Of a DNA stretch of 64,000 bases, positions 9,742 to 43,600 are shown one piece after another (the stretch's first letter is position 1; every line of letters begins with the position of its first letter). This DNA is from an uncultured Verrucomicrobiae bacterium (GTDB lineage: Bacteria > Verrucomicrobiota > Verrucomicrobiia > Limisphaerales > JAFGQR01): the NCBI GenBank assembly GCA_963788655.1, contig CAWBHS010000088.1, positions 96,001-160,000 on the forward strand, given 5' to 3'. The position numbers were made by a program, and so were the translations under genes. The notes beneath the pieces were generated by a model, which made no database searches, was not told where the DNA came from, and saw only the letters and a program-made list of their open reading frames with translations.

Positions 9742-10968
9742 ATGAGACAGATGTTGAAGAATTTGAACTGGCAGTATGGCGCGACACTGGTCCTGACCGG
9801 ATGGTTGGCCCTGGCGGTGACCGGGTGCGGGACGCGGAAGCAAGCCGACGCCGATCCGGCCGGGAATCCACCGGATCCGCTCGCAGTCACCGAGGGCGAG
9901 CCGTTGGTGATCGACGCGCCGGGGGGCAATGCCGCTGCCCCGGCCAAGCCGCTCAGCGAAGCGGACCAAGCCTGGCTGGATTTTCAGCAGGCCACAAAAA
10001 CGCCCGACCCGCCGGAGGCTTGGCAGGAAAAAAAGCCTTCGGACGAAGAAGTGGCCACGTTCAAACGCGGAGCCGCCAACCAATTGGTGCAGGCGGCCGA
10101 CAAAGCCAAGGATTTTTACACGCGCTTTCCCCAGCACGAACAGGCGGCGGAAGCGCATCGGCAGGAAATCGGTTTACTGAACTTTGCGGTGCAACTGGGC
10201 AACACCAACGTGTCGGCCCGTGTGGAACAACTTGAGGCCGCCCGCTTGAAGGATCCGGCATTGTCTGAGGATGACCGCCTGGAGTTACGGGTCCAGCAGT
10301 TGCAGCGGGTGATGGCGTCCAGCAACGAGACGAATAAAACGGCATCCTTGAAGGAATTGGAGCAAGGAGTTCGTGCGTTGCAGAAGGAATTTCCCCAACG
10401 TCCTGAGATTTGGGGTTTGATGCTGTTTGCCGCGGAGCGGTGGCTGGAAGCGAACGAAGGCGCCAGGGCCAGCGCGCTGGCGGCCGAGGTGGCGGCGGCG
10501 GACGTGGACGAAGAACTCAAAACCGGCGCGGCCGAGTTGCAGCGGCGGGCGGGCCGGTTGGGCAAACCGCTGGCGTTGAAATACACGGCGATCGACGGAC
10601 GCGAGGTGGATTTGCAGAAGATGCCCAACAAGGTGGTGCTGGTGGATTTTTGGGCCACCTGGTGCCGGCCATGCATGGCGGAGTTGCCCAACGTGAAAGC
10701 TGCTTACGAGAAACTTCATCCGAAGGGTTTTGAGATTGTCGGCATCAGCTTTGACAAAGAAAAAGCTGCCTTGGAACGGGTGGTGAAACAGGAGCAGATG
10801 GCCTGGCCCCAATACTTCGAGACTGGCACCGGCGAACACCAATTTGGTGAGACCTTCGATATTAGCAGCATTCCCACGATGTGGCTGGTGGACAAGAAGG
10901 GCGTGCTCCGGGATTTGAACGGTCGTGAGAACCTGGCGGCCAAGGTCGAAAAGCTGCTGGCCGAATAA
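9742..10968 (+). CDS. TlpA/ResA-family thiol-disulfide oxidoreductase lipoprotein
   Basis: Lipobox AVTGC, VVLVDFWATWCRPC, IPTMWLVDKKG. Confidence 0.9.
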   Translation: MRQMLKNLNWQYGATLVLTGWLALAVTGCGTRKQADADPAGNPPDPLAVTEGEPLVIDAPGGNAAAPAKPLSEADQAWLDFQQATKTPDPPEAWQEKKPSDEEVATFKRGAANQLVQAADKAKDFYTRFPQHEQAAEAHRQEIGLLNFAVQLGNTNVSARVEQLEAARLKDPALSEDDRLELRVQQLQRVMASSNETNKTASLKELEQGVRALQKEFPQRPEIWGLMLFAAERWLEANEGARASALAAEVAAADVDEELKTGAAELQRRAGRLGKPLALKYTAIDGREVDLQKMPNKVVLVDFWATWCRPCMAELPNVKAAYEKLHPKGFEIVGISFDKEKAALERVVKQEQMAWPQYFETGTGEHQFGETFDISSIPTMWLVDKKGVLRDLNGRENLAAKVEKLLAE

Positions 10969-11020
10969 GCGCCGGAACCGCGAATGCATCCAACGCAATC
11001 GCGCTGCGACCAAGCGGTTG

Positions 11021-11055
11021 GTAGGGCGAGACTCCGTCGAGCCGTGACTTCCCCG
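11021..11055. repeat. Family C GTAG REP solo arm
   Basis: gtagggcgagactccgtcgagccgtgacttccccg matches the arms at 58127 and 58262-58296 (inverted). Confidence 0.85.
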
Positions 11056-11160
11056 CCTTGCGACCGGACAAGGAAGCCGAACCCGTGGGAAGCCATCAAG
11101 CGTTTGAAGCTCTCCAAGAGACCATGCTCACGCGACAATACTGCGGGCGGTTTCCTGGAT

Positions 11161-12567
11161 TTATCGCCATGCGGCCTCGACGTGCCGCGCTTCGGTCCAC
11201 GTTTGCCCAACGCACAAGCGCAAGACGAAACGGCCTTCGAGCACGGTGTGCGTGAGATAGAGTTTTCCGCTGCGATTGAGTTCTTCGAGCAACCGGCGAT
11301 TGACCTCGTCGCCGCCCTGGTGACGGAAACAGACGAGGTTCAGCGGGGCGGGCACGGTCAGTTCGAAATCGTCCGCCGCCTCGATCCACCGGGCAAACTG
11401 CTGCGCCAGTTCCACGTGACGCCGCACGTGGTAACGCAAGCCTTCGACACCGTAATGGCGAATCACAAACCAAAGCTTCAACGCCCGAAACCGCCGGCCC
11501 AGCGGCACGTGCCAGTCCCGATAATCAATCACGGCACCCGATTCGGTGGCCTGGTTGCGCAGGTATTCCGGCAGCACGCTGAGCGTTTTGATAAGCACTG
11601 CCCGGTCGGCCACGTAGAAGCAGTCGCAATCGAAGTTGGTGAACATCCATTTGTGCGGATTGAAACAATAGCTGTCCGCCAGTTCCAGGCCGTCCTGGAA
11701 ATGCCGGAATTCCGGGCACAGCGCCGCGGTGCCGCACATGGCGCCATCCACGTGCAACCAGAGACCGTGCGCGCGGCAAATCCGGCCAATCGCGGGCAGC
11801 GGATCGAACGCATTGGACGAGGTCGTGCCGATGGTGGCGCAAACAAAACACGGTCTGAGGCCGGCCTGACGGTCTTCGGCGATCTGCCGTTCCAGGGCCT
11901 CGGGCCGCAGGGCGAACCGTTCATCCACTTCGATCAACCGGAGATTGCGACGCCCCAGTCCGGCAATCTTCACCGCTTTCTCAATCGAGGAATGGGTTTG
12001 CGTGGACGCATAGGCTACGAGCTGTCCATCGCCGCCGCGCTCGTTGGTTTGGAATCCGGTGGCCCGTTCCCGCGCCGCCAGCAACGCGCACAGCGCTCCG
12101 CCGGATGCGGTGTCCTGAATGACGCCGCCGCCGGCAGTATTCGATTTGAATTGGGCCGGCAAGCCGAGCATGTCCGCCAGCCAGTCCAGGACATGCGTCT
12201 CCAATTCCGTGCAGGCCGGACTGGTGGCCCACAGCATTCCTTGCACTCCCAGCCCGGCGGACAGTAGCTCGCCAAGGATCGACGGACCGGAATTGTTGGC
12301 GGGAAAAAAGGCGAAGAAGTTCGGCGATTGCCAATGCGTCAGACCAGGAACGATCAACTGGTCCACGTCGCGGAGAATGGCCTTGAAGGATTCACCGTGT
12401 TCCGGCGGCGTGGATGGCAGTTGGGAACGAATCTGCCCCGGCTGAACCTGGGCCAACACGGGGAAGGACTCGATGCGCTTCTGGTAATCGGCAATCCAAT
12501 CCACCAGGGCGTGGCCCCACTGGCGAAATTCGTCCGGCGTCTGATGATAGCTTGTGGGCTCGGTCAT
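11161..12567 (-). CDS. PLP-dependent aromatic-L-amino-acid decarboxylase (DDC/TDC family)
   Basis: THWQSPNFFAFFP, SPACTELE, HVDGA, NPHKW (PLP lysine), PLGRRFRALKLW. Confidence 0.92.
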   Translation of the reverse strand: MTEPTSYHQTPDEFRQWGHALVDWIADYQKRIESFPVLAQVQPGQIRSQLPSTPPEHGESFKAILRDVDQLIVPGLTHWQSPNFFAFFPANNSGPSILGELLSAGLGVQGMLWATSPACTELETHVLDWLADMLGLPAQFKSNTAGGGVIQDTASGGALCALLAARERATGFQTNERGGDGQLVAYASTQTHSSIEKAVKIAGLGRRNLRLIEVDERFALRPEALERQIAEDRQAGLRPCFVCATIGTTSSNAFDPLPAIGRICRAHGLWLHVDGAMCGTAALCPEFRHFQDGLELADSYCFNPHKWMFTNFDCDCFYVADRAVLIKTLSVLPEYLRNQATESGAVIDYRDWHVPLGRRFRALKLWFVIRHYGVEGLRYHVRRHVELAQQFARWIEAADDFELTVPAPLNLVCFRHQGGDEVNRRLLEELNRSGKLYLTHTVLEGRFVLRLCVGQTWTEARHVEAAWR

Positions 12568-12834
12568 AATGCCGCCCATCAAAACCTCCCCCCCATCGCG
12601 AGTCAAACTCAGCGACATGACCTACAGTCCCGCAGGAATAACCGAAAATGCCCCCCGATTCATCGACGGGTTGAGGAAACCACAATGCCAATTAAGGTCT
12701 GCCACGAACGAAACAAGCCCCGGCCTTCTTGCGAAGCGAGGGGCGACGACAGAAGCGGCTGAAAATGCGACGCAAACCACCCCAATTTGGAATTTGACTT
12801 TTCCGGCAAACGCCGCTGTGATGGCCCTTGTGAA

Positions 12835-12897
12835 GGCCAACAGTTTTCTGCCTAATTCTGTTATTCCACCTGTTGATACGCCTAAACAGCGTTGAAC
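12835..12897 (+). mobile_element. Putative attI-like (or degenerate attC) site heading the cassette array
   Basis: gcctaaacagcGTTGAAC resembles attI1 (CCCTAAAACAAAGTT). An imperfect direct repeat, cctaattctgtt, lies upstream. Confidence 0.35.
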
Positions 12898-12907
12898 TAG
12901 GACATTT

Positions 12908-13288
12908 ATGCGCAACTATCTGCTCATTCTGTGGTGCGTGGGACTGAGTCTGTTCATCCTTGGATGCGAGCGCGCTCCATCCAAAAGTCAGCTCATGGGC
13001 ACTTATACTGGAAGCCTCAATGGCGCTTCTGAAGTTTTGGTCCTGCTCCCTGACGGCACATTCTCTCAGAAATTGACGCTTCCTGGCGGCAAGAAAGTCA
13101 GCGCGAGCGGCACGTGGCAACTGGACTACAAGGCGGTTACCTTTGACAGGTACCAGAAGTTCTACAGTGAGGAAAAGCATGGTGCGCTCATAACGCCGGA
13201 ACCGCGTTACGGGGTAATTTATAAATGGGGTTCCGACATGCTTATCCGTGATTTGGGCTCCGGTTGCTATACGCTGAAACACATGTGA
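12908..13288 (+). CDS. Cassette gene 1: hypothetical lipoprotein
   Basis: Lipobox LFILGC, 126 aa, AT-richer than the flanks. Confidence 0.75.
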   Translation: MRNYLLILWCVGLSLFILGCERAPSKSQLMGTYTGSLNGASEVLVLLPDGTFSQKLTLPGGKKVSASGTWQLDYKAVTFDRYQKFYSEEKHGALITPEPRYGVIYKWGSDMLIRDLGSGCYTLKHM

Positions 13289-13293
13289 CCAGA

Positions 13294-13626
13294 ATGATAC
13301 TTTTGGTCTGATCCTAATACGATTGGCCTATGTGGTGCTGCTCGGCGTGGCGTGTGGAATGATCGCATTAGGGATCAGCCGATTGTCAGACTCGCACTCG
13401 CAGAGCAGATGGAAGATCTTCTCGGTTGGTGACATATGGACTATTCCTCATCGGCGCTGGCGAGTTCGAGGGGTAGCTTTACTACTCAGAGCGGACGGCT
13501 AGTATCTTTTACGGCAGGCGCTGCGATCGGTTGGATGGCCTTTGGAGGCTTTATCGCTGCAGCGCTGGCGGCAGGTTTGGTGTATGTGGGAGTTTTGGCG
13601 AGAATGGAGAAAAGCCTGATGAGCAC
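13294..13626 (+). pseudogene. Degraded cassette gene, small membrane protein
   Basis: Hydrophobic coding segments split across frames. The 3' part (ORF 13436) runs into attC1. Confidence 0.4.
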
Positions 13627-13752
13627 AGCCAACAAGACGCTGGAGACGAACTGCCGCCCCGCTTCTCCGCTCGAAGTTGAGCGGGAATTTGGACGCGCAG
13701 TTCACGCTCGACCTTGCGTTTCCGGCGGCAGTAGCTGAGCTTTGCGTTATGC
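13627..13752 (+). mobile_element. attC-like site 1 (126 bp)
   Basis: AGCCAAC ... GCTGAGC-5 nt-GTTATGC, with internal inverted repeat actgccgcc/ggcggcagt. Confidence 0.8.
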
Positions 13753-13768
13753 AAAGAGAAGCGCGAAC

Positions 13769-14349
13769 ATGAAGCCTAGCATTTTCATTCTTTTGCTGTC
13801 ATTGTCCATGAGCCTTGCGGGTGAACCTGAGACGACGACTCTGAGGTTCCATTACCAGAGATTACCACCAAACAGCACGATGTGGAATCCAACGGCCAAG
13901 TGATAGCTTCGGTCGAAACGGTTTATCGTGGAAGGCATCGCATCCTGCGAACGATAAAATACAAGGTGGCAAAAGGAGATTATGTTGCCGGAGGTGTGAT
14001 GCGCATTTATAGCGTAGGACGTAACGCAATTCTGGCTGAGGAGGACCCCAAAGGCGATGGGCAGGTTACTATGACAGTTTACGGGAAGACTGACAATCCA
14101 GGAGATTTCGAAGTGTTTCGAAAGTCAAAAGATGGATTGGTTCAGCCAATAACCAGCCGAGAACTGTTCCAACTCAGGCGCGAGCTACAGGAGTCTTCCA
14201 AGTTCTTTGAGGGCTTTGCACACTGGTTGGCAGAGAAAATTGAGACGGAATCACCCGAGAAAATCGCGAATGACGTGAAAGCGCTTGGAGAAGCCGCAAA
14301 ACGGGCGAAGGAGGCAATGGATAAAGAAAAGCAAGAAAAAGATAAATGA
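13769..14349 (+). CDS. Cassette gene: secreted hypothetical protein; frameshift near 13840
   Basis: Signal peptide MKPSIFILLLSLSMSLAG from ATG 13769 shifts into ORF 13882-14349. Confidence 0.65.
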
Positions 14350-14351
14350 TT

Positions 14352-14447
14352 GCATAACCAATCGAGTCACCGAATGAGCGGCAAGCACGTCAGTTTTGAA
14401 TTTGGAAGGCACCGGGATGCCGCTCATCGGTGCTCTCCGCGTTCGAC
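14352..14447 (+). mobile_element. attC-like site 2 (96 bp)
   Basis: GCATAAC (complement of the preceding GTTATGC) ... caccgaatgagcggca/tgccgctcatcggtg ... GTTCGAC. Confidence 0.85.
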
Positions 14448-14957
14448 ATGAAGGCCATTGTGCCAGTTCTATTCGCGACCCTGCTTCTGGTGGTGTCCTG
14501 TGATTCATCAAGCAGCAAGGTTAGTATTCAGTCGTCCTCCATGAGCACCAACTCTACGATGCATCCGAGATTCGATACTCCTGAGCATGCGGTTGAGTCT
14601 TTGGCCTCAGCCTACCAGTCCCGAGACATCGAGGCGATGGTGGCTGCCAAGGATTTCGCGCTGGATTCCAGGCTATTTTGGGAGGACCTCGGCCTGCCTG
14701 TGACCGACAAGCAGAAGTCAGAATCTGTTGCGGCATTCGAGTCCAATTTTCGCAAGCAGATGGCAGAGGACGGTATCCCTGATTATCGGGGAGTTGAGCA
14801 TGCAATCGCCCAGCGCGAGGAACTTCAAACCAACCTCGTTGTCATCACGCTTGAATGTCGATGGCCAGATGGACGAAAGGTCAGACTGAGGCTCCCCACC
14901 TTGAAAACTGGGTCGCAATGGAAAACAGTCTTGGTTCCAGGCTACGATCATTTGTAA
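14448..14957 (+). CDS. Cassette gene: hypothetical lipoprotein (possible NTF2-like fold)
   Basis: MKAIVPVLFATLLLVVSC lipobox. TPEHAVESLASAY and a WK-containing C-terminal strand are reminiscent of NTF2-like proteins. Confidence 0.75.
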   Translation: MKAIVPVLFATLLLVVSCDSSSSKVSIQSSSMSTNSTMHPRFDTPEHAVESLASAYQSRDIEAMVAAKDFALDSRLFWEDLGLPVTDKQKSESVAAFESNFRKQMAEDGIPDYRGVEHAIAQREELQTNLVVITLECRWPDGRKVRLRLPTLKTGSQWKTVLVPGYDHL

Positions 14958-14958
14958 T

Positions 14959-15084
14959 GTCGAACAAGCGGATGCACACGAACCGCCGCCCCGCGCTTCA
15001 GTTCGGACGTGTCGCACTCTTTGGACGCTGGATTCGCTGCCAGCGCCCGCTATCGGCGGCGGTCGGTGATCCTTGGCGTTCGAT
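14959..15084 (+). mobile_element. attC-like site 3 (126 bp)
   Basis: GTCGAAC (complement of the preceding GTTCGAC) ... accgccgcc/ggcggcggt ... GTTCGAT. Alignable with attC1. Confidence 0.85.
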
Positions 15085-15087
15085 GAC

Positions 15088-15462
15088 ATGAATCCCCACG
15101 AGCAGCAAAAGAGGATCGCTGGAGTGCTTCCACGGCTCCACTGGAGCGCAGCAGTGCTGCTCATGTGTGCTGTCGGTTTTTGGCTGATGGCGCCGGCCTC
15201 TCCAGCCTATCTCATAACGTATGCGGCCGTTGGGATGCTATGGTTCGGTGCGGTCGTGTGGATGTGGCGGATGTGGTGCCTTATCGGGACACTTACGATG
15301 ATGCCGGTTTTTGCATTGGGTTACTTGGTGCCGCCGAGACTATTCCCCGAGTCTTCCCAAATGGTTGAGCTTCAAGGAATTCTGCTGGCTTTTGCCATCG
15401 TGTCATTCTTACTGTGGCTGTTGCGGCCGCAAGTGATTCGTTATGCAAGACTGGAGAACTAA
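15088..15462 (+). CDS. Cassette gene: small integral membrane protein (about 4 TM)
   Basis: 124 aa with several hydrophobic segments, bounded by attC3 and attC4. Confidence 0.7.
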   Translation: MNPHEQQKRIAGVLPRLHWSAAVLLMCAVGFWLMAPASPAYLITYAAVGMLWFGAVVWMWRMWCLIGTLTMMPVFALGYLVPPRLFPESSQMVELQGILLAFAIVSFLLWLLRPQVIRYARLEN

Positions 15463-15463
15463 C

Positions 15464-15585
15464 ATCGACCAGTCAGTGGAGTCAAAAGGTGCCCGTTAAA
15501 GCAGTTGCGACGTCACGGGCAATCTGACGTTCTTCTTCGTCTGAGGCGCACTGCCGGAACCAGTGGTTCACTTCTATGGTTCGGC
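15464..15585 (+). mobile_element. Degenerate attC-like site 4
   Basis: ATCGACC (one mismatch to the complement of GTTCGAT) ... GTTCGGC. Internal symmetry is poor. Confidence 0.55.
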
Positions 15586-15744
15586 GTGAACGGTCCACGC
15601 CCAAGCAGGAATTTGATTTATGGATTGCTTGATCCTCGAGATCAATACCTCCGATACGTTGGAAAAACTCACCAGCGTCGTGAACAAAGAATGGCCGAGC
15701 ACACGATGGAGGAAGTATCGACGCCGAACCAAACGGGTCAATAA
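15586..15744 (+). pseudogene. Truncated GIY-YIG nuclease cassette gene
   Basis: IYGLLDPRDQYLRYVGKT...R...H motif, but only 52 codons. Confidence 0.6.
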
Positions 15745-15822
15745 CATGTTCGCGCCTCCGCTCTACTCGAGGTCCATTCGTGGTTTTCTTCCTAGCTTTG
15801 GAAGAGCCGCCTTACGTTCTGC
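15723..15822 (+). mobile_element. Degenerate attC-like site 5
   Basis: GCCGAAC is the exact complement of GTTCGGC (15579-15585). Candidate right core GTTCTGC at 15816-15822. Confidence 0.45.
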
Positions 15823-15878
15823 GAATGTGGGATTGAGTGCCACGCCATCCAATGGTTGACAGGGCGATTGGCGCGCGT

Positions 15879-16631
15879 CTATTTGGCGCCGCCAAATTTC
15901 TTCGCCACGGCCGACTGCATGAGTTGTTCGAGGCTGGCGAATCGGGCATAACCTTTCGGCGCTTCGAACGCCTTCGCCGCTGGCTTCCGCAACTGCACGT
16001 TCCGGAACATCATGCGCACGGTGGAATCCTCCTCGTGCATCTGGATCTGCACCGGAAACCCTTTCAAATCCGAAGCGTACCATCCCAGAGCCTCCCGCTT
16101 GACACCGGCGGGGCTGGTAATGGTGACCTGATACTTCACACAGGGATGCCCGGCGACCGTTTCGTGGCCCAGCTTGTGTTTGGAAATCTGGTATTTGGCC
16201 TCCAATTCCTTGACTTCGTCGGCTGACATCGGGATAGCCGCGTAACTCTTCAAGTTGGGATAAATCACGAGGGTGCTTTTCAGGTCCGGGCGCACCACGG
16301 TGATCATTCGATCCATCCCGAGTTGCTGCAAATGCGCAAACGCCTGGGGGGCCACCTGGCCGTTCTTCAGATCGCTCAAATTGATGCCGGTACACACCTT
16401 GCCCTTCAGCATCGCGAACGTCATGGGAATCCGCATGGTTTCCCGTTGCTGGCCATCCAGCAGAACGGCCTCAGCCTGCGCCGAAAAGCTGGTGAACTCG
16501 CCAAACAACTTGAGCACTGCCGCGTTGAGACCGGTCTGGGGACCGGTGGGCATTTGCGCCGGCGCTGAATAGTATCCGAGGCCCACCGCGGCAGCGGCGA
16601 ACAGAACCAAGCCAGACGGGCGCATGTTCAT
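15879..16631 (-). CDS. Secreted DUF4412-like protein
   Basis: Signal peptide; KLGHETVAGHPCVKYQV, WYASDLKGFPV, FEAPKGY. Confidence 0.75.
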   Translation of the reverse strand: MNMRPSGLVLFAAAAVGLGYYSAPAQMPTGPQTGLNAAVLKLFGEFTSFSAQAEAVLLDGQQRETMRIPMTFAMLKGKVCTGINLSDLKNGQVAPQAFAHLQQLGMDRMITVVRPDLKSTLVIYPNLKSYAAIPMSADEVKELEAKYQISKHKLGHETVAGHPCVKYQVTITSPAGVKREALGWYASDLKGFPVQIQMHEEDSTVRMMFRNVQLRKPAAKAFEAPKGYARFASLEQLMQSAVAKKFGGAK

Positions 16632-16853
16632 AGACAATAGTGTTCCATTACATTTCGATTAGCAGTGGCTGGAAATCTAACGCAAAACTGCATCTACACC
16701 AGCCGGAAACGTGGTTTCCAACGGGCCACGGGCGCCTCGCGTTTTTGCCGCAGGTTTCGAATTCATCAATCGGAACGCAGGCGAGGGCAACGACGCTCGG
16801 CGGCAGGTTTGCGACTTTCCTCCGCCGGGCGTTGTCGGCTACGCTGTCCGGGC

Positions 16854-17516
16854 ATGAAATGCATTGTTACCGCCGGGCCCAGTTATGAACCGCTCGATCA
16901 AGTGCGCCGCCTCACGAATTTCTCCACGGGCCGGTTGGGTGGCGAACTGGCGGATTTCCTGACTGCCCGCGGTCACGAGGTCACCCTGTTGTTGGGCGAA
17001 CAGGCCACGTGGAAGGGGCAATCACCGGCCCAACACGTCCAACTCTTTGGTTCGACGGGAGACTTGAGCGTGCGTCTGGAAGCACTCAGCAGAACGTCCG
17101 TGGACGCGGTGTTCCATGTGGCCGCAGTCAGCGATTTCACGGTCGGCACGGTCTGGGAGCACGCGGCCGATGGCGAGATGATTGAAGTCAAGGCGGGAAA
17201 GATATCCTCGCGGATTGCGCGTCTGCTGGTCGAGTTGGTGCCCACCATCAAAATTATTTCGCACCTGCGCGACTGGTTTCCGCAGGCCGTCCTGATGGGC
17301 TGGAAATACGAAGTTGATGGCGACCGCTCGACCGCACTTCGCCAGGGCGAACAACAAATCGCGCAATGCCGCACCGACGCCTGCGTCGTTAACGGTCCGG
17401 CCTACGGACGCGGATTTGGCGTGGTAACCGCCCCCGGCCGACGTGCCCACGTGCCCGAGCAACCGCTGCTTTACCGAGTGCTGGAGGAGTTGCTGCGGAA
17501 GCTTGCCAACGACTAA
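16854..17516 (+). CDS. coaB: Stand-alone phosphopantothenate-cysteine ligase (DFP domain)
   Basis: VTAGPSYEPLDQVRRLTNFSTGRLG, AAVSDF, GWKYE. Confidence 0.8.
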   Translation: MKCIVTAGPSYEPLDQVRRLTNFSTGRLGGELADFLTARGHEVTLLLGEQATWKGQSPAQHVQLFGSTGDLSVRLEALSRTSVDAVFHVAAVSDFTVGTVWEHAADGEMIEVKAGKISSRIARLLVELVPTIKIISHLRDWFPQAVLMGWKYEVDGDRSTALRQGEQQIAQCRTDACVVNGPAYGRGFGVVTAPGRRAHVPEQPLLYRVLEELLRKLAND

Positions 17517-17553
17517 TGACCTATCGTCAGGCGCACGCGGCTGCCTTCGTAAA

Positions 17554-17625
17554 TCAGTTCCGCCCCAGGCCGGCGGAGGCGCCGGTGATGACCACGACTT
17601 CGGGTTCATGGTTGCGATGCTTCAT
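17554..17625 (-). pseudogene. N-terminal fragment of a short-chain dehydrogenase (SDR)
   Basis: MKHRNHEPEVVVITGASAGLGRN* carries the TGxxxGxG motif, then stops. Confidence 0.65.
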
Positions 17626-17638
17626 GGCTAAAATCCTC

Positions 17639-18019
17639 TCAATCGCCGGCCGGAAACGCCATCGTGCTGAGCAGCGCGTTTTCGGCCTGGCGCGAATCGA
17701 GCCGGGTGTGTTGGACCACGATCGGCACGTTGGATTCGATGACGCTGGCGTAATCGGTGTCCTGGGGAACCGGCTCGGGATCGGTGAGTTCATTGAAGCG
17801 CAGATGTTTTGTTCGCCGCGCGGGAACGGTCACGCGGTACGGCCCGGCGGGATCGCGATCCGCGAAATAAATCGTGATCTGGACGTGGGCTTCCTCGTCG
17901 GTCGCGTTCAGCAGGCAGGCTGTCTCGTGACTGGTGAATTGCGGTTCCGGGCCGTGGCTCCAGCCGGGAATGTATCCTTCGGCGATGGCCCAACGTTTGT
18001 GTCCAATGGGAGGGGTCAT
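17639..18019 (-). CDS. Anabaena sensory rhodopsin transducer (ASRT)-family protein
   Basis: IGHKRWAIAEGYIP, SHETACLLN, VPARRTKHLRFN, ESNVPIVVQHTRLDSRQ. Confidence 0.88.
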   Translation of the reverse strand: MTPPIGHKRWAIAEGYIPGWSHGPEPQFTSHETACLLNATDEEAHVQITIYFADRDPAGPYRVTVPARRTKHLRFNELTDPEPVPQDTDYASVIESNVPIVVQHTRLDSRQAENALLSTMAFPAGD

Positions 18020-24755: not shown

Positions 24756-25140
24756 AGTCCGTTGTTCCTTTCGTTTGAGGGCGCCCGCCGCCGCAACGCG
24801 CCGCGCCCCTCGAGCCTCTTTCAGCATCCGATGTACCGTCACAGCGCGGGCTCCCGAAATGATTCACTTCACGCCGATTTGGCGGGGTCGCGCCTTCGCG
24901 AAACGCGCTCGGCACTTTGCAGATTGCAGCGTGGCACCGATGATCCCGTGCAACGTGCAAGGCAATGAAGGTGCGAATGTGGTTGCATGCGTTCGTCCCC
25001 GCCAACTTTGCGGGCGGGTACGCCGCAGTGCGGCGTCCTCTGCTCCGGTTGGTCTTCAACCCCGCCGCGCTCCCACAATGACAATCCGGCCCCCAGGCGG
25101 AAAGGGCGGGCAAAGCGGACGCTGCCGACAACGGCGATCC

Positions 25141-27799: not shown

Positions 27800-28409
27800 T
27801 GGATTCCCATAAAGCCGAAGCTTCGAAGGTGCCGGCCGCGGCTTTGGACAGCGCCACCAACAGCCCGAAGGCTACCGCGCCCGTGCCCGTATGCACGACG
27901 GCGACATCGCCAAACTTGACGATGCCCACCAGCAGCGACACCAGAAAAATTTCGTTCAAGCTCCACAGATTCACATATTGCACGACGCGATGAGCCAGGC
28001 GACGGACGGCAATCCACTGCGTGGGGCGGGTGAAGCCCAACACACCCCAGCCGAGCAACTGCAAGGCAGGCGCAACGAGAACGCCCAGAACGAAGAAGGT
28101 CCCAATGAAGTATTGCTGACTCTGATAAAGCCGGCCGGCCGCCTGCACGATATTGAATTGATTGTAGTTTCCCATGAAGACGACCGACGCGATGGGAAAC
28201 ACCATCGCCGGCACGTAAACGATTAACGCGCCCAGCACCAGCCAAGCCGTTCGCGAACGGGCCGCGGGTTTGAACCAGCCCAGCCGCGCGCCGCAACGGA
28301 CGCAATCGTACGCCGCTCCTGGCGGTGCCGGTCCCTGGCATTGGACCAGATGACAAACTTCGCACGCCATTACGGGCTTGGCTGGGGTTACGTCCGGTGG
28401 GTTTTTCAT
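27777..28409 (-). CDS. pqiA: Paraquat-inducible protein A (single-domain)
   Basis: CEVCH...CVRCGARL, YVPAMVFP, WSLNEIFLVSLLVGIVK. Confidence 0.85.
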   Translation of the reverse strand: MKNPPDVTPAKPVMACEVCHLVQCQGPAPPGAAYDCVRCGARLGWFKPAARSRTAWLVLGALIVYVPAMVFPIASVVFMGNYNQFNIVQAAGRLYQSQQYFIGTFFVLGVLVAPALQLLGWGVLGFTRPTQWIAVRRLAHRVVQYVNLWSLNEIFLVSLLVGIVKFGDVAVVHTGTGAVAFGLLVALSKAAAGTFEASALWESNEHQESS

Positions 28410-29704: not shown

Positions 29705-30070
29705 TCATTGCGCGGACGTCGAACCTTCATGTTCGTTGGGTTTGACGGTGATGTTGTTTTCGACGTTTTTAACGCCGGGCACCTGTTGAGCAACTTTGCC
29801 GGCCTGTTCCTTTTGTTTCTCGGTGGTAACAAAACCGCTGAGTTGAACGGTGCCCCGGAAGGTGGTTACCACCACTTCGTCCAGTTTGTACACCGGACTG
29901 TTTTCCAGCGCGTCTTTAACGCGTTCGGTCACGGCCTTGTCATCGATGTATTGGCCGGTGCTGCGATTGGCGTGCGTGCTGGCGCATCCCGCCACTCCGC
30001 CCAGACACAAGCTGAAGGCGACACCGAGCATGGCGCTGACGCTGACGAGTTTGTTTGATAATGTTTTCAT
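29705..30070 (-). CDS. BON-domain lipoprotein (OsmY-like)
   Basis: Lipobox VAGC; GQYIDD, VTTFRGTVQLSGFV, VPGVKNVENNI. Confidence 0.9.
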   Translation of the reverse strand: MKTLSNKLVSVSAMLGVAFSLCLGGVAGCASTHANRSTGQYIDDKAVTERVKDALENSPVYKLDEVVVTTFRGTVQLSGFVTTEKQKEQAGKVAQQVPGVKNVENNITVKPNEHEGSTSAQ

Positions 30071-40630: not shown

Positions 40631-43600
40631 TCATGCTGAACCTCCCGCGGATTTTTCCCCTGCGGCCAATGCGGGATTAGGATTGCGCAGCTTGGCCAGA
40701 TAGGTGGTTCGCGGCCGGGTATTCAATTGGCCCAGCATGCTGTAATCCAGCGGCAGCCGTTTCAGTTTGGACACCTGGCTGTCCGGATTGTGAATGTCAC
40801 CAAACACAATGGCTTGGGCAGGACAGGCCTGCTGGCAGGCGGTCCGGATTTCGCCGTCGCGAATGGGACGGTCCTGTTCCTTGGCGGTGATGCGCGCCGC
40901 ACTGATGCGCTGGATGCAGTAGGTGCATTTCTCCATCACCCCGCGCCAACGAACCGTCACATCCGGATTGCGCATGGGTTTGAGACTGGGCGTGTGATAA
41001 TCCGCGTATTGCAGAAAATTGAACCGGCGGACTTTGTAGGGGCAGTTGTTCGAACAATAACGCGTGCCGATGCAGCGGTTATAGACCTGCAGATTCAAGC
41101 CTTCCTTGTCGTGCAAGGTGGCTCCGACGGGGCAAACCAGTTCGCAGGGAGCGTTCTCACATTGCATGCACGGCACCGGTTGATGGCTCATTTGCGGATG
41201 ATCGAGGTCGCCACTGAAATAGGTATCCAGGCGAATCCATTGCATCTCCCGGCGCACAGCGACTTGTTGCTTCCCAACGATGGGGATGTTGTTCTCCGAC
41301 TGGCAGGCCAGCACGCAGGCATTGCAGCCAATGCACGCGGTCAGGTCGATGGACATGCCCCAGTGATACCCGTCATAACGATGCTCCTCCGGGTTGAACA
41401 AAGTCTCCGTTTTGGGGTCCGGAAGTTCCGTGCTCTGCTGGATTAACTCGGGATGCTCCAGAAACGTGGCCAGGGTTGCCTCGCGGTAAATCTGGCGTTC
41501 CTCCGAGTCAATGGCATGGTGGGTTTGTGTCGTGACGAGCGGATAGTGTTTACCGGTTCGGGTCAGTTGAACTGCCGGATTCGACCAGAGCGTATCCGAC
41601 GTGCGCAAAACAAACGCATTGAATCCGGTCGCGCGGCCCGTATGCCCGACCTGGCTGCGCCCATAGCCGAGATAGACCGCGACGGTGCCCTCCGCCTGGC
41701 CGGGAGTGATCCATACCGGCAAACGCAGGGTGCGCTGACCGGTTGCCAACTCGACGATATCACCGTTCGCCAGCGAATGTTGCTGGGCGGTGGCGGGGCT
41801 GATCAAGGCGGCGTTATCCCACGTCAGTTTGGTCACGGGTTTGGCGAGCTCCTGGAGCCAGCCATTGTTCGCGAACCGGCCATCCCAGATCGTTGGGTCG
41901 GGACGGAATACCAATTCGAGTGCCGACGTGCCATCGGCGCTCGTGGATTGGCCGCGCTCACTTTGGCTCAACGCATTCGTAATTGCATTGCGGTCCAGTT
42001 GTGGCGTCTTTTTCGGCAGAGTCGTTCCCGCGATCAACCCGTCGTGCAGCGCCCGGCGCCAGCCTTTCTCAAAGTCCGGCCAGGGGTGGTGCGCGCGCCA
42101 ATACTCGCGCACGATATCGTAATCGCCTCGCACCGGTTGGCGCACGAACGCATCCAACACTTCATGCGCCGATTTGCCGGCATAAAGTGGCAGGATGAGC
42201 GGTTGAACGAGGGAAACCGTTCCATCGTAAGCGCGCGCATCGCCCCAGGATTCCAGGTAGTGATTTTGCGGAATGTGCCATTGGCAGAGGACCGACGTTT
42301 CATTAACGTCGGGGCTGAGATGAACGCGTAATTGAGCCTTCGACAGGTGCCGGTGAAATTCTAAATCCGCCGGCGCCGTGAAGACCGGATTCCCTCCCAG
42401 CATGACCAGCAGATTTACGGTGCCGCTCTTGAGGTCCGCCACCAGTTCACGTAACGAGTCGAGTTGGCTCGCCGGTCGAGGTTCAGCCGATGCCGAGTAG
42501 TGGATGGTCTTGCCGACGTTGCCGAGGATATGATTGATCGCATGCACCGCGGCGTGAACAACGGAGGGCTGATTCTCACCGGCAAGCACGATACCGTTGC
42601 CGCGATGTTGCTGCAGGTCGGCCACGAGCGCTGAAAGCCACGTCCCGTGAACCGAAAGTCCGGGATCAATCGTGGCTCCCGGCAAAGCCCCTAACTGCCG
42701 CCCGACCTCCAAGGCCAGAGCAGCAATCTCGCGGGATCCTAATGCGAGCCGATGATCGGCATTGGAGCCTGTCACGGAGGGGGTGCTCTCCACCACATAG
42801 AGGCGATTCATGTCCAATCGACCGCTGCTGACCCGGCGGCGATCGATAAAGTCGCGGGTGTAACGCAAGCCAGCGGGATGGGAAAACATGAAGTCTGAAT
42901 CCAGGGCCAGCACCACCCGAGCTCGATCGAAATGATAGTGCGCTGCAACCGGCTCCCCGAACGCCAAGCGAGTTCCTTCGTGAACATTGTCGCGATTAAT
43001 CGGTTCATACTGATGCCAGCGCGCTTCGGGAAATTGCGTCATGATTTCCTGAATCTGGGCGTGCAGGGTCGGAGAGATCACCGTTTCAGTCAGGATCCTC
43101 AAACCGGCCCCCCGGGTATTGCGTTGACTTTGCAATGCATCGTGCAGGGCGGACAGGAACGCGGCCCAACTGCTGATTTCGCCGCCGTTGAGAACGGCTT
43201 GCGAGCGGTCGGGATCATACAGGTCAAGCAACGAGGCTTGCTGGAAAACATTGGAGGCACCCAGGCTCATCGGGTGCTCGGGATTCCCTTCAATCTTGGT
43301 GGGATGTCCTTCGTGGCTTTCGACGAGCAATCCCGAGGCGAAGCCGCCCAGGGTCACGGCGGTGGCAAAAAACAACGGTTTGCCGGGGATGATGGCTTCG
43401 GGTTGTTTAATGTAGGGGACAATCTTTTCCGTCGGCTGCTTGGTGCAAGCGGTCATGCCCGCCAGCGCCAGGCTGGCGCCCATCAGTTTCAAAAAGTTGC
43501 GCCGGCTTACGCCATTCAGCCATTCGGAGGCGCGCTCCGGGAATTCGCGATGCACAAACTCAACAAACTCCCGGGTGTGCGCGATCTCCTCCAGGCTGCG

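Follow-up and report, generated by a model that had tools for sequence, protein, structure and literature searches.

How does a row of integron cassettes come to stand in a genome with no integrase gene beside it? The question is raised by a 64,000-nt stretch of DNA, hereafter the window, from an uncultured and probably verrucomicrobial bacterium. The window corresponds to positions 96001-160000 of contig C88 (C88:96001-160000); other contigs are denoted in the same way, and coordinates given without a contig are those of the window. The assembly comprises 8.96 Mb in 115 contigs, with 86% completeness and 5.6% contamination. At 12794-15822 on the plus strand, with a pyridoxal decarboxylase gene on one side and a DUF4412 gene on the other, the window carries an integron cassette array. 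This segment is very probably an integron platform minus its integrase, made up of a promoter-like box, an attI-type site and five co-oriented cassettes bounded by attC sites. The sites, their family membership, the complementarity that chains them, the attI head and the lack of intI in the window are direct observations. The element is a CALIN (attC sites clustered without an integron integrase), hence of a known kind; its unusual part lies in the many integrase-less attI platforms found in the same genome. The array is one of about 25 in a cassette-rich genome.

The array was first recognized by the chained core sites of its palindromes. Among Rfam families none fits them (two chance matches, E > 6, over 11000-18000), so a test was built without sequence from the window. 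An attC motif derived from sites 1 and 3 located like palindromes standing in rows beside the integrase genes of contigs C49 and C59 and on many other contigs, and site boundaries were set by a simple hairpin scan. Thirty-two aligned attC sites from eight other contigs, none of them from the window, gave a covariance model, R1. In the training alignment, laid out as R box, unpaired spacer and L box, 80.3% of cells were paired versus 66.0% after shuffling, and 115 cells carried double changes versus 43.8; none of 500 shuffles scored as high. When the register was slid, pairing was 28-45%. Searched over the whole window, R1 returned as its five best matches the five intervals that the initial annotation had proposed, all on the plus strand. 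The remaining five matches in the window had E values of 0.45 to 2 and were scattered elsewhere. Other long AAC...GTT palindromes picked out by the hairpin heuristic (28269-28393, 29767-29871, 41049-41185 and 25000-25054) gave no R1 match at E ≤ 10.

Three of the five sites were recovered strongly and two marginally. Site 1 (13627-13752, 126 nt; R'' AGCCAAC, R' GTTATGC) scored 87.4 bits (E 5e-20), site 2 (14352-14447, 96 nt; R'' GCATAAC, R' GTTCGAC) 69.7 bits (E 1.5e-15) and site 3 (14959-15084, 126 nt; R'' GTCGAAC, R' GTTCGAT) 110.8 bits (E 7e-26). Site 4 (15464-15585, 122 nt) is eroded and scored 15.3 bits (E 0.065 window-wide and 0.0037 within the region). Site 5 (15723-15822, 100 nt; R'' GCCGAAC, R' GTTCTGC) is badly eroded and scored 14.5 bits (E 0.11 over the window and 0.0061 when only the region is considered). 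These lengths agree with the 96-126 bp given earlier for the palindromes. Minus-strand scores were 13.7 bits for site 2 and 5.6 bits for site 3, with none listed for site 1. Site 2 and the attC that opens the C38 array share 99% identity. Sites 1-3 show the features of an attC structure, namely an R''/R' hairpin, an unpaired central spacer, an L box, extra bases on one arm and a variable terminal structure. With some 3 nt more in the R''-L'' arm than in the arm it pairs with, the bottom strand when folded has two bulged bases in site 2 and three in site 3; the latter forms a complete hairpin with its bulged bases on the longer arm. Extrahelical bases of attC sites have been described at the same arm position (Nivina et al., 2016; PMC5027507). 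A search for such bases in folded bottom strands had been suggested; they were present in sites 2 and 3, but the folding energies were not significant and site 5 did not fold.

A second line of evidence is the relation between neighbouring sites. An integron integrase would excise a cassette as a circle by attC × attC recombination of folded bottom strands, and the circle would then be re-inserted at attI. The last six bases of each R' would derive from the next cassette, and every boundary would be chimeric; for this reason, each GTTRRRY would be the reverse complement of the next RYYYAAC. Four such pairs had been reported, and all four were found to match at 4/4 variable positions: GTTATGC (13746) with GCATAAC (14352), GTTCGAC (14441) with GTCGAAC (14959), GTTCGAT (15078) with ATCGACC (15464), and GTTCGGC (15579) with GCCGAAC (15723). 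The mismatch in the ATCGACC pair falls in the AAC triplet, outside the variable positions. The rule holds across the genome: of 63 consecutive pairs, 41 agreed at 4/4 variable positions between R' of one site and R'' of the next, as did 40 of the 54 whose sites lay no more than 1.5 kb apart. As controls, random pairings of R' with R'' agreed at 4/4 in 6.7%, and R'' and R' of one and the same site in 8/99. Complementarity of this kind is direct sequence evidence for integron-type recombination. The cassette boundaries fall at G|TT.

The palindromes might instead be REP- or MITE-like (repetitive extragenic palindromic or miniature inverted-repeat transposable element) repeats, or terminators, lying between resident genes. 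They are GC-rich intergenic hairpins with more than 100 occurrences in this genome, and their folding energies are unexceptional, as this explanation would have it. We consider it hardly credible. The R1 scores are strand-specific, the sites cluster beside intI genes and attI heads, and the genes between them are unique orphans of lower GC content. A dispersed repeat or terminator would not give the complementarity of neighbouring sites.

The array starts with a head. A 50-nt segment at 12844-12893 on the plus strand, aligned in ten copies, has the properties of an attI site (type 1), with the crossover G|TT between 12891 and 12892. The nine further copies in the genome are 85-96% identical to it. 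Across the ten heads, the mean pairwise identity of the core is 0.906 and ends exactly at GTT; over the next 28 bases it is 0.30, which is random. One of the ten, on C59, adjoins an intI gene that is divergent from it, as in an integron. The 7-mer starting from the GTT of attI matched R'' of the first attC at 4/4 positions in six arrays (C87, C38, C78, C59, C67 and C94), which makes six of the nine arrays with both a head and an attC; agreement was 3/4 in C113 and C50 and 1/4 in the window. By these alignments, we identify 12844-12893 as an attI-type site. We rejected the possibility that the head is itself a cassette or a hairpin like that of attC, as R1 gave only 2-3 bits there. On C115, the head (C115:10935-11115) has GTA for GTT at the crossover; with no attC following it and no integrase, this platform is empty and degenerate.

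Upstream of the attI-type site lie promoter-like boxes (resembling Pc, the cassette promoter) that face the cassettes at 12794-12822: TTGACT (12794-12799), a 17-nt spacer and TGTGAT (12817-12822). All ten heads contain TTGAC(A/T), 17 non-conserved bases and a T-rich hexamer. The predicted promoter would drive the cassettes. A short open reading frame (ORF) of 21 codons with a GTG start, at 12830-12895 on the plus strand, reads through the attI core to a TGA stop that arises at the crossover (CGT TGA). In each of the ten heads an in-frame ATG or GTG ORF of 21 to 34 or more codons starts 5-9 bases past the T-rich hexamer and terminates on or immediately beyond the crossover. The attI core is open in two of its three frames anyway, and the short ORF is only putatively coding. 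Conservation of the attI core and the TTGAC box, with a near-random spacer between the boxes, suggests selection on integrase-less platforms.

The head also bears on how the array began. Cassettes could have been added serially at an ordinary genomic GTT without any attI, and Loot et al. proposed an origin of CALINs by insertion at genomic attG sites (bioRxiv 10.1101/2022.09.11.507474). Such insertion is documented and has been put forward there as a source of small CALINs and of lone attC sites that have no integron integrase (SALIN). In the window, the junction with the genome is a conserved attI-type head and not ordinary sequence: the 50-nt segment is about 91% identical to nine other heads, one of them beside intI, and the similarity stops at G|TT. 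Because the head is conserved, we exclude attG insertion as very improbable. The initial annotation had placed the left start of the array too far in, without recognizing the attI-type site and promoter-like box at 12794-12893 with which the element begins.

We then asked where the integrase might be. A genome-wide six-frame search with TIGR02249, the integron integrase profile, gave no match in the window, in keeping with the earlier statement that no tyrosine recombinase is present there; on the contig, the closest place with a weak match is C88:630-755. A tblastn search with the IntI of C59 found no IntI remnant within 6 kb of the window head. In a complete integron, intI adjoins attI and is divergent from it; here a decarboxylase gene stands upstream of the head, while the other mark of a complete integron, an attI at the head of the array, appears to be present, judged by homology and context. 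The array fits a CALIN on both counts: there are at least two covariance-model attC sites less than 4 kb apart (the sites are spaced 500-730 nt), and both searches found no integron integrase gene near the array.

Elsewhere in the genome, TIGR02249 matches above the curated cut-off were found on contigs C59, C49 and C69. Of the four intI loci, only one is intact. R1, used to score 150 of 5811 candidates, gave at least 112 attC matches; nhmmer gave 114 matches in 42 clusters, 25 of which contained two or more sites. The search for intI genes and further sites that had been recommended thus yielded about 25 arrays with no fewer than 112 attC sites. Arrays of this attC family adjoin the TIGR02249-positive intI genes of C49 and C59. 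An integron array without intI in the window is supported by an independently built attC model, by same-family arrays next to intI and by the genome-wide chain rule. Judged by attI sequence, the cognate enzyme of the window array would be of the C59 IntI type.

Nine of the ten type-1 heads, the window included, are integrase-less. No IntI remnant was detected within 6 kb of these nine (tblastn, E ≤ 10), the sole exception being a 15-nt block in the window described below. A second set of attI-type heads (type 2) is homologous to the spacer between intI and attI on C49 and occurs at C9:102905-103119, C9:5413-5640, C27:16249-16472, C47:1404-1617, C59:6926-7145 and C3:72133-72195. These heads end in ...ACTGTT followed by variable bases, carry a TTGAC box and a palindrome of 29 nt (GGATAAACCGACAATTTGTCGGTTTATCC), and belong to six arrays without an intact intI beside them. 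Fragments of the N-terminal part of intI lie beside integrase-less arrays at C59:7167-7478, C47:1639-1897, C100:91368-91748 and C62:15942-16097; at the type-2 heads of C47 and C59, such a fragment is all that is left of the adjoining gene. Since these fragments remain beside arrays, integrase loss has been repeated in this genome. A third integrase type, that of C69, is recognized only from intI remnants beside arrays.

The five cassettes themselves conform to the description of short, co-oriented, AT-richer orphan genes: their ORFs are on the plus strand and of lower GC content, no Pfam match was obtained for any of nine candidate cassette ORFs, and the genome contains no paralogues of them, only the attC parts recurring. 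The ORFs occupy the cassette space, starting 1-17 nt past R' and stopping 1-2 nt ahead of R''. Cassette 1 (12892-13746, 855 nt) contains an ORF of 126 aa at 12908-13288, with a lipoprotein-like signal including the Cys, plus 340 nt with small ORFs. The loss of an attC has probably fused two cassettes here, although the lost intervening site is a guess; neither R1 with its filters off nor nhmmer found a hidden attC in this cassette. By eye, 13305-13327 resembles the 3' arm of an attC (GGTCTGATCC...ATTGGCC); the resemblance has no statistical support and we make no claim for it. In cassette 2 (13747-14441), a gene for a secreted protein without Pfam match is split by a frameshift (13769-13903 and 13882-14349). 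Cassette 3 (14442-15078) encodes a lipoprotein-like protein of 169 aa (14448-14957). This ORF has 22 metagenomic homologues, none with a Pfam domain and one named from a Verrucomicrobia assembly, and homologues in 5 of 400 genomes of the order. Cassette 4 (15079-15579) encodes a hydrophobic, membrane-protein-like product of 124 aa (15088-15462). No supported ORF was found in cassette 5 (15580-15816, 237 nt). An ORF at 15505-15744 had been guessed by eye to be a truncated GIY-YIG nuclease; this was rejected, as it has no GIY-YIG match even at E ≤ 1.

The distal end of the array is decayed, and the last two sites had been called eroded. For site 4 this holds: about 110 nt are 80% and 78% identical to the model-positive attC sites C39:37530-37655 and C93:31910-32035, respectively, and relative to these, point changes break the AAC triplet (to ACC) and the stems. 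By this comparison, site 4 belongs to another attC subfamily, of which it is an eroded copy. Site 5 has no stem, yet its R'' chains perfectly with site 4 and its GTT-type R' is kept. What looks like erosion here is in part an intron fragment: within the site, 28 nt (15743-15770, plus strand) repeat without change the 3' end of a group II intron that is 816 nt long and has no ORF. Copies of this intron, more than 99% identical, are found at C27:79802-80618, C60:9944-10759 and C55:65634-66449, and it was identified with Rfam RF02003 (57.9 bits versus a gathering score of 49). The age gradient read from sites 4 and 5 fits the window array and is anecdotal. It is not established across headed arrays, because the last model-positive site was the weakest in four of the nine such arrays with an attC, versus about 2.6 expected by chance (bit-score tally).

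Several of our results weigh against the array as an integron platform, and against its present use. The folding energies of sites 1-5 were unremarkable when compared with shuffled sequences (z of -1.5, -1.9, -1.9, -1.2 and +0.7, the last being +0.73 before rounding). As folding energy alone is unconvincing, the case rests on the model, covariation and context. Sites 4 and 5 are only marginal matches, and the interior of site 5 is unfolded. R1 itself is purpose-built, was seeded by a hairpin heuristic and is distinct from the published IntegronFinder model. Cassette 1 departs from the chain rule with attI, agreeing at one of four positions. A scan for promoters of E. coli consensus made no call at the window box, so that the promoter and the small ORF are read from conservation. 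No attC of the R1 family was matched near the ORF3 homologues in the five genomes of the order that have one, and the notion of ORF3 as a cassette travelling between arrays was dropped for lack of attC at these five loci. The intI on C59 beside the type-1 attI scores 391 bits on TIGR02249, and an in-frame TAA removes profile positions 1-23; the intI on C49 is split by a TAG; a second intI on C59 (positions 10152-11725 within C59:57001-71000) is split by an insertion with a GIY-YIG gene. The C69 gene is intact (314 aa, 274.8 bits versus a cut-off of 265) and stands at a contig end, but its product is only 39% identical to the IntI of C59. Since the C59 and C49 copies are broken and the only intact IntI is distant, integrase activity at the present day is doubtful. 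Finally, as the genome is metagenome-assembled, with the completeness and contamination given above, integrases and arrays might not share one cell. The array in its present form is probably largely frozen.

The initial annotation had left two options, an IntI acting in trans or one since lost. This was a fair statement, because intI genes exist elsewhere in the genome; it singled out neither option, and our data bear on both. Origin in cis would mean that the segment is a former complete integron, built by a divergent intI of C59 type that was later deleted, with no action since. We regard this as quite possible, though somewhat short of probable. It agrees with the standard hypothesis of integrase loss for CALINs (PMC4889954), with the N-terminal intI fragments at other integrase-less arrays of the genome, and with the decayed distal sites and the frameshifted cassette 2. 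It also finds a trace at the locus. A 15-nt block at 12752-12766 (plus strand) is identical, in a pairwise alignment, to the sequence at the matching position upstream of the C59 head, where it lies within the 5' coding region of intI. The block is unique in the window and was present in 0 of 100 shuffles; it could be what is left of an intI once present here, or else a regulatory site. Against origin in cis, the 175 nt from the promoter box to the start codon of the decarboxylase gene are unrelated to C59 but for this block. Moreover, none of the nine integrase-less type-1 heads carries a remnant, and nine clean deletions to a near-identical point seem unlikely.

Conservation at the heads points to service in trans. 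An integrase-less platform can only work in trans, so the conserved attI core and -35 box, standing among a randomized spacer and upstream sequence, argue against a pure relic, as does their conservation against origin in cis alone. We infer that the array was serviced in trans for at least part of its history, and we give at least some such service somewhat more weight than origin in cis followed by freezing; the two are not exclusive alternatives. A wider proposal is that of a dispersed integron, in which a few, mostly broken intI genes serve many integrase-less platforms in trans, with promoter, ORF and attI under selection. The platforms would number ten of type 1, the window included, plus six or more of type 2 that have no integrase. 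We put this forward tentatively and consider it doubtful. If it were true, many places on the chromosome would capture and express cassettes, and CALINs bearing an attI would be working parts rather than debris.

The array is bracketed by two resident genes. The decarboxylase gene on the left (11161-12618, minus strand; called ddc in the initial annotation) matches Pfam PF00282 with 398 bits, and the DUF4412 gene on the right (15879-16637, minus strand) matches PF14371 with 35.2 bits; both are outside the element. Between them, GC content falls to 0.48-0.58 over 12600-15999, versus mostly 0.58-0.65 in the flanks, which marks a low-GC stretch of 3.2 kb.

Relatives were compared at two levels, the locus and the sites. 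A close homologue of the decarboxylase was present in only 1 of 30 relatives, a genome of another family (80% identity). There the gene has a different neighbour and no attC in 4.4 kb, and the best DUF4412 match of that genome (35% identity) is on another contig. A genome of the same genus yielded neither the decarboxylase nor the DUF4412 gene when searched with the window queries. At the level of sites, the attC family is widespread in the order, with an R1-family match at E ≤ 1e-5 in 23 of 30 relatives. BLAST with a 64-nt head found nothing of the type-1 head in 200 other genomes of the order. The exact pattern of the attI core had one match in public genome contigs and two in metagenome contigs, which are chance matches of AT-rich sequence with no attC near. 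As a general rule, attC sites are shared and attI is specific to its integrase, and the spread of the attC family, with no type-1 head in the other genomes and contigs searched, fits that rule.

Some further observations concern the integrase genes and attC sites of other contigs. The insertion in the second C59 intI is about 330 nt long, contains an 87-aa GIY-YIG ORF (PF01541, 58.7 bits) and lies in the conserved ...LRLRV|KDVDLEQ... region. The in-frame TAG of the C49 intI is at the same position, and it may be the footprint of an insert of the same kind. Two attC sites, C49:299109-299238 and C48:1-96, lack R' and run on into one shared sequence (TCATCTCTGAGGTGA...), as if copies of one element had been inserted in both. 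Tyrosine recombinase genes at C62:26022-26855, C45:1536-2311 and C44:24352-25185 give a weak match to TIGR02249 in two pieces, with positions ~179-238 absent. The frames on C62 and C44 are 355 aa long, and the genes on C62 and C45 are divergent from, and adjoin, the attC sites C62:25673-25797 and C45:2592-2710.

Taken as a single locus, the window contains a clean and well-supported integrase-less array that adds to a known class, and the chain of core sites proved a test that works on raw sequence. The genome around it offers more. Ten aligned heads let attI be read directly. Some arrays have clearly lost an adjoining intI, as their remnants attest, and nine arrays of the window type keep a conserved attI and promoter-like box with no remnant. 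Because remnant-bearing and remnant-free arrays occur in one genome, the use of integrase-less platforms in trans is testable there.

Among known systems, the class 1 integron offers a comparable pattern for the head. Its attI1 site has direct repeats, the promoter Pc and the short ORF-11. The window head is like attI1 in having direct repeats upstream of a simple site that ends at G|TT, a promoter-like box directed into the cassettes and a short ORF that spans attI. It differs in that we found no sequence relationship and that the integrase gene is absent here; the functions of repeats, promoter-like box and ORF are putative.

Compared with CALINs as characterized by Cury et al. (2016; PMC4889954), the window array, small at five sites, has the features that their definition gives: two or more model attC sites within 4 kb of one another and an absence of intI close by. 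Like the CALINs in that account, it has cassettes of unknown function and lies in a genome that encodes IntI elsewhere. It differs from them in keeping an attI-type site and a promoter-like box, in a head that recurs ten times in the genome. The origin of integrase-less arrays is still argued, and integrase loss, rearrangement and insertion at secondary sites are the sources listed in that work, where intI pseudogenes were reported near only 15 of 279 CALINs. In IntegronFinder as presented there, attI is sought only by exact match to classes 1-3, and another source describes attI as 'poorly described' outside class 1 (PMC9024848). In the literature compared, the heads of CALINs are unexamined, because attI sites are undescribed outside a few classes; a phrase search for 'orphan attI' was uninformative on novelty.

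The ilvD-linked integron of Xanthomonas (bioRxiv 10.1101/2025.06.18.660453) is similarly chromosomal, has lineage-specific orphan cassettes and an intI that is often inactivated, and is accompanied by extra CALINs at other loci. According to that report, a retained intI in Xanthomonas is always at one locus, downstream of ilvD, with the CALINs elsewhere. The window locus differs in having no intI remnant beyond the 15-nt block. It also belongs to a genome of a different build, with about 25 arrays and at least two attI families, each in multiple integrase-less copies.

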